Notes: generated by a model not told the origin, from the sequence alone. A DNA stretch of 64,000 bases from an uncultured Gammaproteobacteria bacterium (GCA_964452165.1 CAYVKP010000001.1:426375-490374), one strand, 5' to 3'; positions 980 to 15,178 are shown, counted from the stretch's first letter. Numbers and translations are program-made.

Positions 980-1109
980 AGCAGGCCTCCTTAACGGAAC
1001 GGCTTTACAAGCCTCTTACGCGACGTTTATCCACAGAGCATTTGATAGGTGTATACTTAGTTGTTAAGAGAATCATGTTAATTTTATTAAATGGTAGGGA
1101 GGTGAGAAT

Positions 1110-1307
1110 ATGACGGATAAAAACGAAAAATGTTGTGAAAATTGCGGTAACTGCAATAACTGTGGTTGTAACTGCGGCGGACACGGAATGATGATGATGG
1201 ATTGTTGCCAAGAGCACAAGATGTCTAAGGAGCATCTGGAAGCAAAGAAAACAAGACTTGAGGAAAAACTCAAGTGGGTGAATGAAAAACTAGGAGAGTC
1301 AAAATAA
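1110..1307 (+). CDS. Small Cys-rich protein (65 aa): N-terminal CC/CxxC-rich segment (11 Cys in ~30 aa), an MMMM run, and a C-terminal charged helical tail; possible metal-binding protein
   Basis: A strong Shine-Dalgarno sequence (GGGAGGTGA) sits 6–7 nt upstream of the ATG. The sequence is 'CCENCGNCNNCGCNCGGHGMMMMDCC'. I recognise no homolog. Confidence 0.55.
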   Translation: MTDKNEKCCENCGNCNNCGCNCGGHGMMMMDCCQEHKMSKEHLEAKKTRLEEKLKWVNEKLGESK

Positions 1308-1336
1308 TACCGCCTATCGTTTATAATTAATTAGGT

Positions 1337-1660
1337 ATGGTAGATTTAATAACCGGCAAAGGAAATTTAGCTGGGAAAGGCATTTATGCCGGACGGGATT
1401 TCAAGAAAGGTGAGGTTCTTATTAAGTATCGTCTCAAACACCTGACTCCGGAAGAATTTAATAATCTCCCTGAAAGCGAAAGAGAATTTACTCACGTACA
1501 CCACGGAGTAATTGATCTTTACAGTGAACCCGAGCGATACGTTAATCATTCCGATAGTCCTAATACTTATCAGGATTTGGTAAATATGTGTGATGTTGCT
1601 GCCCGAGATATTAAGAAAGGTGAAATGATAACAACCGATGCTACAAAAGATGATATATAA
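1337..1660 (+). CDS. Minimal SET-domain protein (putative protein-lysine methyltransferase)
   Basis: 'GKGIYAGRDFKKGEVL' resembles the GxG/SET-N region. 'ERYVNHSDSPNT' matches the SET NHSCxPN motif. The C-terminal 'GEMITTD' is ELTxDY-like. Length is 107 aa. Confidence 0.7.
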   Translation: MVDLITGKGNLAGKGIYAGRDFKKGEVLIKYRLKHLTPEEFNNLPESEREFTHVHHGVIDLYSEPERYVNHSDSPNTYQDLVNMCDVAARDIKKGEMITTDATKDDI

Positions 1661-2366: not shown

Positions 2367-3158
2367 GTGAAAGATTACTCCTCTATAAATCGCAAGTGGT
2401 GGAATGACGTTACGTTAGTTCATTCAAAATCAAAATTATATGACCTCGAGAATTTTAAAAAAGGAAAAACTAGTTTACAAAAGACTGAAATAGACGAGTT
2501 GGGAAGTGTTCGCAATAAAACATTATTGCATCTCCTTTGTCATTTTGGGATGGATACTCTTTCCTGGGCAAGACGCGGAGCAATTGTGACAGGAGTTGAT
2601 CTATCAGATGATTCAATCCGTTTAGCAAAAAAACTGAGCAGGCAGATCGGAGTCCCCGGAAATTTTGTTTGTTCTGACATTTATAGTCTGCCAAAAGTTT
2701 TGGATAAAAAGTTCGACATAGTTTTTGCTTCTTACGGAGTCCTCTTGTGGCTATCAAGTATTAAGAAATTCGCAAAAATCGTTAAGCACTTTTTGGCTCC
2801 CGGGGGAACGTTTTACATAATAGATCTCCATCCTTTTACAGAAATCATAAGCCATGACTTTAAGTTTGCATATAAATATTTTGACCGCGGACCTTATCTT
2901 GATGATTCGTCCGGTACTTATACGGATTGGAGTAGCGATGACGTAAGTGGTATCACTTATGAATGGAGTCATACAGTAAGTGACGTTATTAATTCATTGA
3001 TAGGGCAAGGTTTGAAAATAGAATTCCTTCACGAATTTCCCTATACCATGTATGACCAGTTCCCCGGATTTATGGAAAAGAATAAAAAAGGACAATACGT
3101 TTTGAAAGATAAGAAGATCCAGGTTCCTTTGCTTTTTTCTCTTAAAGCAACCAAGTAA
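2367..3158 (+). CDS. Class I SAM-dependent methyltransferase (GTG start)
   Basis: 'LLHLLCHFGMDTLSWARRGAIVTGVDLSDDSI' is a motif I-like Rossmann segment (the glycine-rich GxGxG is degenerate here). 'FDIVFASYGVLLWL' is motif II. Upstream lie TTGACA (2331–2336) and TAATAC (2355–2360). Confidence 0.75.
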   Translation: MKDYSSINRKWWNDVTLVHSKSKLYDLENFKKGKTSLQKTEIDELGSVRNKTLLHLLCHFGMDTLSWARRGAIVTGVDLSDDSIRLAKKLSRQIGVPGNFVCSDIYSLPKVLDKKFDIVFASYGVLLWLSSIKKFAKIVKHFLAPGGTFYIIDLHPFTEIISHDFKFAYKYFDRGPYLDDSSGTYTDWSSDDVSGITYEWSHTVSDVINSLIGQGLKIEFLHEFPYTMYDQFPGFMEKNKKGQYVLKDKKIQVPLLFSLKATK

Positions 3159-3176: not shown

Positions 3177-3752
3177 ATGAAGGAAATTATTCTCCCCCTG
3201 AGCATCATTATTAACATGGTTTCATACTCCTCTTATATAATTGCGATTTTCAGGGGTAAAGCAAAACCACACAGGACAACGCGGTTCGTTCTGCTTACAC
3301 TCTCGGCCCTAGCTACACTTTCTCTTCTCGCGCAGCATAACTCCGTAGCGGTTTGGTTGGCGGGAGCAAATCTTACATTCTCTTCGGTTTTGTTTTTGTT
3401 AAGTTTCAAATATGGGATGGGAGGGTGGAGCAAAATGGATATTTTGTGTTTGGTTATAGCCGTGGTTGGAATTATTATTTGGCAGGTAACGGGGAGCTCC
3501 ACACTCGCCTTGTACGCTGCGATTTTGGCAGATTTTACAGGAATGGTACCAACAATTATTAAAAGTTATTATCATCCCAAAACTGAAGTTTGGTATTTCT
3601 TCTTTTTGGCTGGAATTGGTGCTGCTCTTAATCTTTTGGCAACTCGAGTTTGGACATTTCAAGAATACGCCTTCCCTCTTTACATAACATTAATCAATAC
3701 CGGGATGGTGACTTTATTCTTCAGGCATAAACTTCTGAAAAATTTAAAATAA
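3177..3752 (+). CDS. Polytopic membrane protein (~6 TM) of unknown function; sits directly upstream of ribE-ribH and could be a riboflavin/precursor transporter (speculative)
   Basis: The protein is hydrophobic throughout and co-oriented with the rib genes, 20 nt from ribE. No family was recognised confidently. Confidence 0.45.
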   Translation: MKEIILPLSIIINMVSYSSYIIAIFRGKAKPHRTTRFVLLTLSALATLSLLAQHNSVAVWLAGANLTFSSVLFLLSFKYGMGGWSKMDILCLVIAVVGIIIWQVTGSSTLALYAAILADFTGMVPTIIKSYYHPKTEVWYFFFLAGIGAALNLLATRVWTFQEYAFPLYITLINTGMVTLFFRHKLLKNLK

Positions 3753-3772: not shown

Positions 3773-4348
3773 ATGTTTACAGGAATAATTACAAATCTTG
3801 GAGCGGTCATACAAAAAAAACAATCAAAGCTTACCATAAAGGCGGACAAAAGTTTGCTTAAAAAAATCGAAAATGGAACAAGCATTTCAGTAGATGGGAT
3901 CTGTTTGACTGCCGTAGAGATTAATGAAGAGTCTTTCGTAATAGACTTTATGCCGGAGACTCATGAACTGACGAATATAAAATATTTGGTTGACGGTGAT
4001 ATTGTTAATTTAGAGCTACCCGCAACTCCTGCCACTTTTTTGTCAGGACATATTCTTCAGGGGCACGTTGACGGGGTAGGAAGACTTGAGGAGTTAACAG
4101 AGGAAGGGAATAGTCGTATTTTAAAGTTTTCAATACCAAAGTCCTTGTCCAAATATATTGTTGAAAAGGGTTCAATCGGAGTGAATGGAATATCGCTGAC
4201 GGTCATTGATGTTGCCAACGAAATTTTTACAGTTGGTATTATCCCGTACACATGGGATAATACCATGTTGTCGGGACTCATCCGGGGTAGCGCAGTAAAT
4301 ATTGAGGTCGACGTTTTGGCAAAATATTTGGAAAAGCTTAACAAATGA
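3773..4348 (+). CDS. ribE: Riboflavin synthase alpha subunit
   Basis: The N-terminus 'MFTGIITNLG' is diagnostic. Two lumazine-binding repeats are present ('GTSISVDGICLTAVEI', 'GSIGVNGISLTVIDV'). Confidence 0.9.
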   Translation: MFTGIITNLGAVIQKKQSKLTIKADKSLLKKIENGTSISVDGICLTAVEINEESFVIDFMPETHELTNIKYLVDGDIVNLELPATPATFLSGHILQGHVDGVGRLEELTEEGNSRILKFSIPKSLSKYIVEKGSIGVNGISLTVIDVANEIFTVGIIPYTWDNTMLSGLIRGSAVNIEVDVLAKYLEKLNK

Positions 4349-4788
4349 AAAAGACGGAGGAAATTAAAATCGCAATAATTGGGAGTAATTTTCAAAGAGA
4401 AATTACTGATGCTCTTGAGGAGCATTGTATCGATACTCTCTTAGGGAAAGGCATCAGGAAAGAGCAGATACTTTCCGTTCGAGTTCCAGGTTCGCTTGAA
4501 ATACCGCTTGCAGCAAAAAAACTTGCCGAGAAAAATAAATTTGATGCTCTTATCGCTATTGGAGCAATTCACAAAGGTGAGACATATCACTTTGAGCAAG
4601 TTGCAGATCAATGTATTCGCGGCTGCATGGATGTTTCATGGCAGTATGGGATACCGGTGATTTATGAAGTTCTGGCAGTTTACAACATTGAAGATGCAAG
4701 AAAACGAGCAACAAGAGAAGAAGGAAATAGGGGACAAGAAGCAGCGCTGGCCGCATTATCAATGATAGATACAATAGCCAAGATTTAG
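4345..4788 (+). CDS. ribH: 6,7-dimethyl-8-ribityllumazine synthase
   Basis: 'IAIIGSNFQREITDAL...VPGSLEIPLAAKKLA...DALIAIGAIHKGETYHFE' is typical of the DMRL synthase family. It overlaps ribE by 4 nt (ATGA). Confidence 0.9.
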   Translation: MKKTEEIKIAIIGSNFQREITDALEEHCIDTLLGKGIRKEQILSVRVPGSLEIPLAAKKLAEKNKFDALIAIGAIHKGETYHFEQVADQCIRGCMDVSWQYGIPVIYEVLAVYNIEDARKRATREEGNRGQEAALAALSMIDTIAKI

Positions 4789-5153
4789 TCTTTAAAAAGA
4801 TCTTTTACTTCTTCTACATCTTTCTCCATTTGTTTAACTAGCTCTTTTTCCGTATCGAATTTTTTATTCCCACGAATTTTTTTGAACAGTTTAACTGTAA
4901 CTCTTTTGTCATAAATATCTTGATCGAAATCAAAAATATAAGTCTCGGACTTGTAGTCTTTCTCATCAAAGGTTTTTGCCGAGCCAATAAACGTAACTGC
5001 GTTGAAAATTGTTTGGTCAATTGTAATTTGTGAAGCGTAAATTCCCTCCGGAATTTTTTTGTGAAGCGGAACATTTGCGGTAGGGAAACCCAATTGTTTG
5101 CCTCGATTCTTTCCAGAAACAATTTTGCCCCGAAATGTTTGTAAAGATTTCAT
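4785..5153 (-). CDS. Monofunctional riboflavin kinase (RibF C-terminal-domain type / flavokinase)
   Basis: 'GKIVSGKNRGKQLGFPTANV' is the flavokinase signature (G-x-G...LGFPTAN). The protein is 122 aa with no FAD-synthetase domain. It is convergent with ribH and overlaps it by 4 nt. Confidence 0.8.
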   Translation of the reverse strand: MKSLQTFRGKIVSGKNRGKQLGFPTANVPLHKKIPEGIYASQITIDQTIFNAVTFIGSAKTFDEKDYKSETYIFDFDQDIYDKRVTVKLFKKIRGNKKFDTEKELVKQMEKDVEEVKDLFKD

Positions 5154-5324: not shown

Positions 5325-7727
5325 ATGATACACCTATCAGGTAAGAGAAACGAACAACTGATCCCGGTAATTCCAATAAGAGACGGAATTGTTTTCCCCC
5401 ACACAGAGTCAATTCTTACTTTTGGACGACCGAAAAGCCTAGCCGCTCTGGAATCTGCATTTGCAGGAGAAAGGGTTGTATGCTTTGTTCTTCAAAAAAA
5501 TCCCAAGCAGAACGATCCCGAGCCTTCGGATCTATATTCAATGGGTACAGTTTCCCACATTGAAAGAATGATCCGCACAGATGGTGAGGTTAATGCGCTG
5601 GTTCGTGGATTATCACGTGCCAAGATAGTTTCTTACGATGACAAAACCGGATATTTCCTTGCGCGCGTAGAAGAAATAGATGAGGAGAATGTTGATACCG
5701 CTGAAATTAAAGCCCTTTCAAACCACTTGATTGCTGAATTTAAAAAAGCGCTTTCTTTGGGCAAGCAAGCCGATTTTCTAGTCTTCATGAATATAATGTC
5801 TGAAGTTGCTCCTTCAGAGCTTGCTGATCAAATAGCATCAACCCTTGATATTAAGGGTTCTGAGCGCCAAGAGCTTCTTGAGACGATTGATGTAAAGAAA
5901 AGACTTGAGAAAGTTTCGGAGTTTTTGTCACGTGAGGTAAAAGTTTTGGAGCTTGAGAGAAAAATTTCAAGCAAAACTCAAGAGCAATTTGAGAAAAGCG
6001 CCAAGGAAGCAATACTTCGCGAGAGAATCAAGACAATAGAAAAAGAGCTCGGAGATTCTGAGGAGGGCAGTGAAGTAAAAGAGTTGCTCGATAAAATAAA
6101 AGCTGCCGGAATGCCAAAAGAAGTTGAAGAGAAGGCAAGAAAAGAGTTGAAGAAGCTTTCACAAACTACTCCGTATAATCCCGAGGCTGGCTATATCCGT
6201 AACTACCTCGAGACTTTAGTTTCGCTTCCTTGGAGCAAGAAGTCAAAGAGCAACGTAGACCTTCCGGACGCTGAAAAAATTTTAGATGAAGATCACTATG
6301 GTCTTAAAAAAGCAAAAGAGAGAATAGTTGAATACTTGGCAGTTCACAAGCTGGCTGGAAAAATGAGAGGTCCAATTCTATGTTTTGCCGGACCCCCCGG
6401 AGTTGGAAAAACATCAATAGGTAAATCAATAGCGCGAGCACTGGGCAGAAAATTCGTCAAAGTCTCTCTTGGAGGAATTCGCGATGAAGCAGAAATCCGC
6501 GGACACAGAAGAACTTATGTTGGAGCGCTTCCCGGACGAATAATCCAGGGAATCAAAGATGCAGGTACAAAAAATCCGGTATTTATGCTTGATGAAATTG
6601 ATAAAGTTGGCGCAGATTACCGTGGTGATCCATCAGCAGCCCTTCTTGAGGCTTTGGATCCAGAGCAGAATGATCAATTCTCAGATCACTACCTTGATGT
6701 TCCTTTCGATTTGTCGGATGTAATGTTTATAACGACAGCAAATATGCTGGATACAATTCCGCCGGCGCTTCGTGATCGACTCGAAATAATCAACTTCGCC
6801 GGATACACGGAAGAAGAGAAGTTCAATATTGCAAGCCGCTTCTTGATTAAAAAACAAATGGAAGCACATGGTCTAAAAGATAGTAATGTTGAGATTAAAG
6901 ATGACGCTGTCCACTTTATTATTGAGCGATATACAAGAGAAGCAGGAGTGAGATCTCTTGAGCGAGAATTTGCCGGAATTTTCAGAAAGATAGCAAAGTT
7001 GGTTGCAGAGAAAAAATCCGAAAAAACCATAGTTGATAAAAAGATGGTTGAAAAATTCCTGGGTCCAACCAAATTTACCTCATCGCTCGCCGAGAAAAAA
7101 GACGAGGTAGGTATGGCAACAGGACTTGCTTGGACTCCTGTTGGTGGGGAGATTTTGTTTATCGAAGTTGCTCTGATGCCTGGAAAAGGACAACTTATTC
7201 TGACGGGGCAATTGGGTGATGTCATGAAAGAATCGGCCCAAGCTGCCATGTCTTATATTCGTTCAAAAGCATCTCGCCTTGGATTGAGAGAAAATTTCTA
7301 CAGCAAAATTGATGTTCATATTCATGTGCCAGAGGGTGCAACGCCAAAAGACGGACCATCAGCCGGTGGAGCCATGACGACAGCTTTGGTTTCGGCGTTT
7401 ACAAAAATTCCCGTGAGCCACTTAGTTGGAATGACAGGTGAAGTGACGCTTCGCGGACGAATTCTTGAGATAGGTGGTCTTAAAGAGAAATTAATTGCTG
7501 CCCACAGGGCAGGTCTTAAGACAATAATTTTACCAAAAGACAATAGAAAAGATTTGGAAGATGTACCAAAACAGGTTCTTAAAGATTTGAGATTTGTTTT
7601 TGTATCTCATATGGATGAAGTATTGAAGGTTGCATTGACAAAAAGACTTGCAGGACTTGAAGATATCAGAGGAGAGCAGGCGCCATCAACTAATATTACT
7701 TCCCCAACCCCAATCGCCGCCGACTAA
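5325..7727 (+). CDS. lon: ATP-dependent Lon protease (LonA type)
   Basis: It has a LON N-terminal domain, an AAA+ Walker A 'GPPGVGKTS', Walker B 'FMLDEIDK', and a proteolytic domain 'DGPSAGGAMTTALVSAF' with the Ser–Lys dyad context. Confidence 0.95.
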   Translation: MIHLSGKRNEQLIPVIPIRDGIVFPHTESILTFGRPKSLAALESAFAGERVVCFVLQKNPKQNDPEPSDLYSMGTVSHIERMIRTDGEVNALVRGLSRAKIVSYDDKTGYFLARVEEIDEENVDTAEIKALSNHLIAEFKKALSLGKQADFLVFMNIMSEVAPSELADQIASTLDIKGSERQELLETIDVKKRLEKVSEFLSREVKVLELERKISSKTQEQFEKSAKEAILRERIKTIEKELGDSEEGSEVKELLDKIKAAGMPKEVEEKARKELKKLSQTTPYNPEAGYIRNYLETLVSLPWSKKSKSNVDLPDAEKILDEDHYGLKKAKERIVEYLAVHKLAGKMRGPILCFAGPPGVGKTSIGKSIARALGRKFVKVSLGGIRDEAEIRGHRRTYVGALPGRIIQGIKDAGTKNPVFMLDEIDKVGADYRGDPSAALLEALDPEQNDQFSDHYLDVPFDLSDVMFITTANMLDTIPPALRDRLEIINFAGYTEEEKFNIASRFLIKKQMEAHGLKDSNVEIKDDAVHFIIERYTREAGVRSLEREFAGIFRKIAKLVAEKKSEKTIVDKKMVEKFLGPTKFTSSLAEKKDEVGMATGLAWTPVGGEILFIEVALMPGKGQLILTGQLGDVMKESAQAAMSYIRSKASRLGLRENFYSKIDVHIHVPEGATPKDGPSAGGAMTTALVSAFTKIPVSHLVGMTGEVTLRGRILEIGGLKEKLIAAHRAGLKTIILPKDNRKDLEDVPKQVLKDLRFVFVSHMDEVLKVALTKRLAGLEDIRGEQAPSTNITSPTPIAAD

Positions 7728-15088: not shown

Positions 15089-15105
15089 AAATTTAGCTCC
15101 GTGTG

Positions 15106-15178
15106 TGACCCCAGGCGAAGTCGAATCGCCGTTACCAGGATGAGAACCTGGTGTCCTAGGCCACTAGACGATGGGGCC
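15106..15178 (-). tRNA. tRNA-Glu (anticodon CUC), 73 nt, CCA not encoded
   Basis: The reverse complement folds as a cloverleaf: acceptor GGCCCCA/TGGGGTC, D-arm GTC-TAGTGGCCTAG-GAC, anticodon stem CCAGG/CCTGG with loop TTCTCAT, T-arm GGCGA-TTCGACT-TCGCC. It closely resembles canonical bacterial tRNA-Glu. Confidence 0.8.

Follow-up and report, generated by a model that had tools for sequence, protein, structure and literature searches.

The window analysed here, a stretch of 64,000 nucleotides (nt) deposited under the name of an uncultured Gammaproteobacteria bacterium (GCA_964452165.1, CAYVKP010000001.1:426375-490374), carries a short open reading frame (ORF) for a Cys/His/Met-rich protein of 65 amino acids (aa) and, downstream of it, the gene of a minimal SET-domain protein of 107 aa. 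An earlier note on this DNA had likened the small protein to metallothioneins and had proposed that the two genes might act together. Is the small ORF a gene at all, what might its product do, and does it belong with the SET protein? The small ORF is a genuine gene under strong selection, and its product is a member of an unnamed family limited to Microgenomates-group Patescibacteria (candidate phyla radiation, CPR) that probably binds metal. It is paired with a SET gene in only a few lineages, and the pair is not a general module.

The mini-protein gene spans 1110..1307 on the plus strand (stop codon included) and was recognised from its ORF, its homologs and the ratio of nonsynonymous to synonymous substitution rates (dN/dS). 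All nine Cys of its 65-aa translation, MTDKNEKCCENCGNCNNCGCNCGGHGMMMMDCCQEHKMSKEHLEAKKTRLEEKLKWVNEKLGESK, fall in residues 8–33; the Cys block 'CCENCGNCNNCGCNCGGHGMMMMDCC', to which 11 Cys had been ascribed, holds nine by count. The ORF is present as first described, and its coding status is supported by protein-level conservation at 96 loci elsewhere and by a dN/dS of 0.056 over a 30-codon core (dS about 1.3), where variation falls mostly at third positions. The search for homologs showed that the small ORF is conserved in relatives and is not a non-coding frame; nearly all of them keep the frame open, with a 6–7/7 match to GGAGGTG ahead of the start. In the window, the Shine-Dalgarno (SD) sequence that had been called near-perfect, GGGAGGTGA at 1097-1105 on the plus strand, 4 nt 5′ of the ATG, is the sole 8/8 match: GGAGGTGA occurs a single time in the 64 kb (G+C content 37.9%), both strands counted, ahead of the small ORF, and no 8/8 SD precedes any of the other ~53 of about 54 window genes, alternative start codons included. 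Across the window (1-64000) most of these genes have no recognisable SD, the typical match being 3–5 of 8. A weak sigma-70-like promoter candidate, TCCACA-16 nt-TATACT at 1030..1057 on the plus strand, matches the consensus at 9/12 positions only. The exact 65-aa protein is recorded solely from Logan assemblies of runs SRR9179559-63, and since the NCBI entry with the identical SET protein, a 650-kb contig, does not include it, the small ORF is probably unannotated in GenBank.

How far the family extends was addressed at the protein and at the DNA level. A word-indexed search gave 56 homolog clusters (38–80 aa, with E down to 4e-20), and an exhaustive hidden Markov model (HMM) search of 1.84 billion representatives gave 19 proteins of 29–89 aa, with no remote family, multidomain form or fusion of the small protein among these representatives. 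Scans of DNA found 19 loci in 185,579 species-representative genomes, a patchy distribution, and 77 in metagenomes; these 96 loci correspond to about 57 non-redundant ones (loci of small-gene relatives are numbered below with the prefix L, and three divergent family proteins with the prefix P). The 135 distinct relatives found are 38–89 aa long and all come from Microgenomates-type Patescibacteria, and the relatives of the window bear the names Levy-, Woyke-, Gottesman- and Daviesbacteria (Microgenomates group, Patescibacteria). An example of a short-form member is MMDKKCNCGGHEMPECCQEHKMSKEHLEMKKKMLEEKLKWVKEKLEEK. The statement that the protein belongs to no recognised family stands for Pfam, NCBIfam, the Protein Data Bank (PDB) and the 1.84 billion representatives. 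Specifically, neither Pfam-A nor NCBIfam gave a match to the small protein at E ≤ 1, and the family profile, run against PDB sequences at E ≤ 10, gave two non-significant matches to unrelated proteins (E 1.1 and 4.3), which were dismissed as chance coiled-coil similarity. A Foldseek search of the AlphaFold2 (AF2) monomer against the PDB gave no match; as the model is mostly one helix, this search is uninformative. In the literature, Patescibacteria were not relevantly linked to metallothioneins, SET domains or Cys-rich small proteins.

Two simple origins were considered and rejected, a phage origin of the small gene, of which no relative was found in viral contigs, and a tandem-repeat origin of the Cys block, in which Tandem Repeats Finder (TRF) found nothing. 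In one metagenome-assembled genome (MAG), Candidatus Microgenomates CRAIB_MAG102, the small gene occurs three times, each time on a separate contig and in a different neighbourhood (L015 5932-6114, L016 5935-6114 and L019 5917-6105). In L011 (1876-2049) an in-frame TAG stands just after the CC pair (CAG to TAG) and the remaining frame is intact, which points to a recent pseudogene or to an error of assembly.

Which part of the protein, then, defines the family? The earlier note had drawn attention to the Cys block; alignment of the relatives showed that this block is the variable part, whereas the conserved part is a segment with a CC pair and two His, (D/E)-C-C-x-E-H-K-M-S-K-E-H-L, followed by an amphipathic helix. 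In the window protein three parts can be distinguished on the plus strand: a variable N-terminal thiolate tail with seven Cys (residues 8–22, CCENCGNCNNCGCNC, 1131..1175), a GGHG-MMMM linker with a His and a Met run (residues 23–30, 1176..1199; alignment columns 27–30 are mostly Met) and the conserved core (residues 31–61, 1200..1292), which reads D-CC-QEH-KMSKEHL and then enters the helix. Among the 135 distinct sequences the core residues are nearly invariant, with C32 kept in 131, C33 in 132, H36 in 132, M38 in 129, S39 in 132, K40 in 131, E41 in 134, H42 in 133, L43 in 135, K46 in 134, K47 in 133, L50 in 132, E51 in 135, K53 in 134, L54 in 134, W56 in 128, V57 in 132 and L61 in 133. Ahead of the CC pair the members have between 0 and 7 additional Cys, with modes at 0 (14 sequences), 2 (46) and 5 (31), the window copy with its seven being the single maximum of the family; the total per member runs from 2 to 9. 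At least one His lies upstream of the CC pair in 113 of the roughly 131 relatives scored, most of which also have 2–4 Met there, the initiator excluded. Purifying selection also acts on the KCCENCDKCxC block of the long-form relatives (dN/dS 0.07). An AF2 model built with the family alignment has residues 1–28 disordered, with a predicted local distance difference test score (pLDDT) below 50 across the N-terminal tail, a short helix at 29–35 and a confident helix at 40–64 (pLDDT above 90). Read from the sequence, this is an amphipathic helix of three heptads with L43/L50/V57 at one core position and L54/L61 at the other, and a second hydrophobic stripe is formed by M38, M45, M49 and W56.

This anatomy bears on function through its Cys and His residues. 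In a cytosolic protein a vicinal CC pair indicates metal binding rather than a disulfide, which is established chemistry, and a metal-binding role, as put forward earlier, is the best reading of the conserved site, whose four residues C32, C33, H36 and H42 are retained in 131–133 of the 135 sequences. Divergent members suggest the same, P0190 being the one member in which HH replaces CC, and P0191 and P0193 having lost both His and gained extra Cys adjoining the site; such changes are swaps of one ligand for another and not random. We therefore lean, with a little more than even confidence, towards a small cytosolic metal-binding mini-protein that oligomerises via its helix and serves as a buffer, store or chaperone. 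The helix would drive homo-oligomerisation, and in the oligomer the adjacent thiolates of C32 and C33 and the imidazoles of H36 and H42 would come together at the helix's N-terminal end. Thiolate tails, where present, would join this metal-thiolate/imidazole site or cluster, and a Cys/Met/His tail of lineage-specific length would add capacity. As a stoichiometric buffer, store or chaperone the protein might handle Cu(I), Zn(II), Cd(II) and possibly As(III), the Met runs favouring Cu(I); metal binding, oligomerisation and the identity of the metal are inferred. The very strong SD would allow high expression, and its exceptional quality fits a protein needed in bulk. The patchy distribution, the three copies in one MAG and the sole 8/8 SD are the behaviour of an accessory, dosage-type gene.

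Several observations weigh against this metal-binding account. No P-type ATPase, CopZ/HMA, CsoR, Zur or similar gene recurs among 178 flanking genes, and no known metallothionein or chaperone model matches the family. The CC pair stands alone in 14 of the about 131 members scored, and the AF2 model, being that of a monomer only, says nothing on the oligomer state. The charged surface of the helix (K40, E41, K46, K47, E51 and K53) is the best conserved feature, which suggests a specific partner, because a simple metal sponge would not need it.

The same Cys could also hold an iron-sulfur (Fe-S) cluster or sense oxidants as a thiol switch, the CC pair acting together with the CxxCxxC of the long forms. 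These forms do contain C-x2-C-x2-C (CCENCDKCxC), which resembles a ferredoxin motif, the total Cys numbers have modes at 4 and 7, and the neighbours often look like small stress-type genes (Transgly_assoc, YGGT, CSD and RRM). Most members, however, are without CxxCxxC, the invariant site mixes Cys with His and is preceded by Met runs, the exchange of CC for HH in P0190 ill suits a thiol switch, and no Fe-S assembly or redox partner recurs in the flanks. A redox or Fe-S protein is for these reasons considered unlikely.

What surrounds the small genes offers a further line of evidence on function. The neighbours were compared by all-against-all clustering and by Pfam searches on 68, 93 (downstream) and 85 (upstream) flanking proteins, and no conserved neighbour was found by either approach across the about 57 non-redundant loci; the flanking genes include LUD, DUF488, AlkA, CPSase, RRM, CSD, Fic, GNAT, NUDIX and surface proteins. 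An ArsR-type regulator was tried as a partner and rejected, with one clear case only (L001), the neighbour in L004 being of HxlR type. Upstream of the gene, 43 distinct relatives share a direct repeat, TT(C/A)AGC-N5-YTCAG(A/G)AA, with a period of 11 bp, located 57–84 nt before the ATG and followed after about 14 nt by a TAnAAT hexamer; for the strict pattern the background rate is 0.006 per 130 nt. In its layout the repeat is reminiscent of a pho-box-type response-regulator site, and the motif is absent from the window. Downstream, a hairpin with a T-run lies within 110 nt of the small-gene stop in 29 of 52 relatives. As the relatives have a promoter motif and a terminator of their own, the small gene is usually a self-contained monocistronic unit.

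Examples of the direct repeat are seen in L005 (about 5915-5940), L056, L088 and L099, and more sites of the motif lie in L013 (1875), L078 (2858), L024 (1521) and L093 (617, minus strand). The same motif also precedes the genes of a Big_1/fn3 surface protein, a His/Met-rich mini-protein with one transmembrane (TM) helix and a secreted 172-aa protein, as well as a DUF1059-like gene. The sequence of the terminator hairpin, ACATAACTTTGC...GCAGAGTTATGTATTTTTT, is conserved despite differing flanks in L005, L013, L039, L048, L051, L068, L080, L093, L099 and L108, with compensatory variants in L009 and L098; a hairpin conserved amid differing flanks implies that promoter, gene and terminator travel as one unit of roughly 300 bp. 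The one-TM mini-protein (56–74 aa; L013 1940-2164 and L078 2921-3091) has a His/Met/Pro-rich N-terminus (e.g. MAHPSPAAHANLMAHANPMMYRGMHPGM) and no Pfam match, is encoded just upstream of the small gene behind the same promoter motif, and may also bind metal. Another mini-protein of 62–63 aa, with two TM helices (MELxTRLIVFVAIIISVNNF...), is encoded within 2 kb of the small gene at five non-redundant loci (L018 5587-5772, L118 476-667, L015 6525-6713, L040 2150-2338 and L099 1966-2187), in two of them directly upstream; it is assigned to no family.

A promoter motif that looks regulated and is shared with few other genes could also be expected of a small regulator or adaptor, in which the helix would be the working part, acting on a conserved partner (as an anti-sigma factor does, for example), and the Cys/His site would be structural or sensing. 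The near-invariance of the exposed charged residues and of W56, the dN/dS of 0.056 and an ECF-like sigma factor gene just upstream in L010 all point in this direction. The sigma-factor neighbour is, however, a single case and no partner gene recurs in the flanks; a patchy, multi-copy distribution would be unusual for a regulator of core machinery, and the exceptional SD indicates abundance, not regulatory stoichiometry. We regard a regulator or adaptor as quite unlikely. The flanks bear equally on the suggestion made earlier that the Cys-rich protein might be a modified peptide. As a ribosomally synthesised and post-translationally modified peptide (RiPP) precursor it would have the variable Cys-rich N-terminus as its core and the conserved C-terminus as a recognition 'follower', and a variable Cys-rich segment does adjoin a conserved one. 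Nothing else supports the idea: no modifying enzyme, protease or exporter recurs among the 178 flanking genes of the 57 non-redundant loci, the proteins have no signal or leader cleavage motif, and additional Cys are lacking altogether in 14 members, so that a RiPP precursor is barely credible.

Is the second gene of the locus what it was taken to be? The minimal SET gene at 1337..1660 on the plus strand encodes 107 aa and begins 29 nt after the small-gene stop, which bears out its placement just downstream. Its identification, made from the NHSxxPN motif, was upheld by Pfam SET (PF00856; score 44.2 bits, cutoff 22.4, E 2.9e-11, profile positions 1–103 of 105), by an AF2 model (pLDDT 78.6) with the SET fold and by Foldseek, whose top PDB matches were all SET proteins (PfSET 4rz0, MLL3 and vSET 3kma; template modelling (TM) scores 0.6–0.66). 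The SET motifs have been defined previously, including motif IV, ELxFDY (PMC3585878). In the window protein, motif I is represented by G13-K-G15, both Gly being invariant or nearly so in the family, and motif II by the invariant Y31, aligned to IEYIG of KMT2D, with the motif Gly replaced by L33. Motif III, RYVNHSDSPN, occupies residues 67–76 (1535..1564, plus strand), with NHSDSPN at 70–76; N70, H71, S72 and N76 vary little or not at all, and the Cys position of the motif is an Asp. Motif IV is a variant, GEMITTDA (residues 95–102; 1619..1642, plus strand), in which Ala takes the place of the canonical Tyr: in the alignment with KMT2D, EELTYDY pairs with EMITTDA, A102 is near-invariant in 54 family members, and this Tyr is the only one missing among the motif tyrosines of the window SET. 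The yeast Set1 mutant Y1054A is inactive (PMC3585878), and catalysis by the 107-aa SET family is in question because A102 sits at the position where Y1054A abolishes activity in Set1. The whole family has Ala for the motif IV Tyr, no post-SET region and no motif III Cys.

The closest parallels in size are vSET of PBCV-1 (3kma) and PFL0690c of P. falciparum (4rz0), which like the window protein have about 105–120 aa, no pre-SET or post-SET region and motifs I–III (TM scores 0.61–0.65); the window SET differs from both in having EMITTDA, not ELxFDY, as motif IV. The claim that bacterial SET proteins are sporadic did not hold in this clade, where the 107-aa family comprises more than 880 clusters in Microgenomates (mostly 107–108 aa) and is no sporadic import; each of the 120 best matches listed shares 70% identity or more with the window SET. 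The window protein is thus an ordinary member of a SET family common in the clade, in which one defining motif (IV) departs from the definition. This corrects a common assumption, since the 107-aa SET protein is widespread in Microgenomates and is without a tyrosine that activity is thought to require.

Do the two genes form a module? In the window they are probably co-transcribed, because the gap is of 29 nt (1308..1336, plus strand) with no terminator between them; the spacer has no terminator or structured RNA (fold z-score -0.67) and includes a TATAAT at 1322-1327. Co-transcription, as proposed earlier, is accordingly plausible in this genome. The pairing itself was found not to be conserved, with the small gene immediately followed by a SET gene at only 2 of the 57 other non-redundant loci and, from the SET side, no small-protein homolog within 2.5–3 kb at 7/7 loci of SET relatives (74–79% identity), where the upstream genes encode a glyoxalase, an 87-aa ORF, GrpB (twice), ParE, a 131-aa ORF and GatB. 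A SET HMM run over the 96 small-gene loci matched in L038 only, and weakly in L105, and in Pfam searches of the flanks of the 57 non-redundant loci SET made up 2/93 downstream and 0/85 upstream proteins. The adjacent cases differ among themselves. L121 encodes the small protein closest to that of the window (79% identical, with the same CCxxCxxCxxCxC layout), followed after 130 nt by a SET of the 107-aa type whose identity to the window SET is only 56%. L038, L116 and L117, which represent one organism (100% identical DNA), have a canonical 136-aa SET (EITVDY) 72 nt downstream. In L105/L106 a Fic gene comes next, and the N-terminus of a SET-like protein lies two genes downstream.

These cases could be taken to mean that the small protein is coupled to SET, either as a Lys-rich substrate (K37, K40, K46, K47, K53 and K55) or as a Cys/metal module that completes the mini-SET in trans. 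A SET gene stands directly downstream on the same strand in three separate small-gene lineages (the window, L121 and L038/L116/L117), with no terminator between the genes in any of these adjacent cases, and the SET-like N-terminus of L105/L106 lies on the same side; SET occurs downstream only, never among the upstream proteins. Two to three cases in about 57 lineages exceed the 0.2–0.4 expected, a rough estimate that rests on an assumed SET share of 0.2–0.4% of genes. On the other side, about 54 of the 57 non-redundant relatives have no SET nearby, the seven loci of closer SET relatives have no small gene, and no fusion occurs among the 1.84 billion representatives. The SET family (>880 clusters) is also far commoner than the small family (56), and the small protein is for that reason not an obligatory SET partner. 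Downstream SET genes are no commoner than those of Fic, GNAT, NUDIX or GT2, both families reside in variable small-gene neighbourhoods (glyoxalase, UDG, CSD and GNAT), which inflates chance adjacency, and the window was picked because of the adjacency. Coupling to SET in either form appears distinctly unlikely. The narrower proposal of a Cys-rich mini-protein dedicated to CPR mini-SET methyltransferases, as their partner or their substrate, would explain why the SETs of three lineages (two divergent 107-aa types and one of 136 aa) lie downstream without a terminator; it is improbable, coupling being a minority possibility in view of the preselected window, the lack of enrichment of SET over Fic, GNAT and NUDIX, and the shared neighbourhoods. 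The weak but recurrent adjacency would be notable if real. A dedicated partner or substrate would imply either a bacterial metalloprotein methylated on lysine or a subunit that provides a metal cluster in trans to a SET domain having neither a post-SET region nor the motif IV Tyr.

Elsewhere in the window, a class I methyltransferase gene (2367-3158) is directly followed by a gene (3177-3752) whose 191-aa product, a multi-pass membrane protein, has no Pfam match. In a riboflavin-related cluster (3773-5153), a Lum_binding (RibE-like) gene occupies 3773-4348 and the gene of a DMRL synthase (RibH) 4345-4788; convergent with them, on the minus strand, is a gene with a flavokinase domain (4785-5153). 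A Lon protease gene comes next at 5325-7727. In an Rfam search of the window, a tRNA-Glu at 15105-15178 was the only match.

Genomes of CPR/Patescibacteria are small and rich in unassigned genes, and metal handling in them is almost unstudied. Against this background the mini-proteins described here form a well-bounded family of about 50 aa under very strong purifying selection, with the strongest ribosome-binding site in its neighbourhood, in which a Cys2His2-type segment is joined to a coiled-coil-like helix and the length of the thiolate tail appears tuned between lineages. If the proposed mechanism is true, they would solve the structural problem of a metallothionein or chaperone in a new way, with sites built by oligomerisation and not as a single-chain cluster.

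What known systems do they resemble? Cys-rich clusters tied to SET domains are familiar from the pre-SET (Zn3Cys9) and post-SET (CxCx4C) regions of SUV39-type proteins, and the window protein likewise has nine Cys; those clusters, however, are part of the same polypeptide with fixed Cys spacing, whereas the small family has 2–9 Cys in other spacings, and the CxCx4C motif is absent from the 65-aa sequence; the motif III Cys with which a post-SET region pairs has likewise been lost from the window SET (NHSDSPN). For the proposed oligomeric site there are parallels in the de novo three-stranded coiled-coil metallopeptides TRI/CoilSer and in MerR/CueR, which have their metal sites at the end of the dimerisation helix. 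In these a short amphipathic helix joins Cys/His of several chains into a soft-metal site, as it may do in the small protein, but those are peptides made by design or belong to DNA-binding regulators. The bacterial metallothioneins SmtA/BmtA and the mycobacterial MymT are small cytosolic proteins with CC/CxC/CxxC motifs and His that buffer metals. The small family is like them in size (about 50–65 aa), in these motifs, of which 14 members keep only the CC pair, in having a disordered apo-region and in its expected buffering role, and copy number and Cys number vary likewise; it has no sequence relationship to them (Pfam and NCBIfam, E ≤ 1) and differs by its Cys2His2-type segment and long amphipathic helix, many members having only 2–4 Cys. 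Hpn and the Hpn-like protein of Helicobacter pylori are cytosolic proteins of about 60 aa and low complexity, with His runs and EEGCC pairs, that act as abundant metal stores. The likeness to them, at the level of description, lies in the size and in the acidic-flanked CC pair, (D/E)CC as compared with EEGCC, whereas Hpn is His-dominated, has no conserved helix and belongs to an unrelated lineage. By analogy, the small protein would in its working be most like a metallothionein or an Hpn-type store, with a distinct architecture that belongs to no described family.

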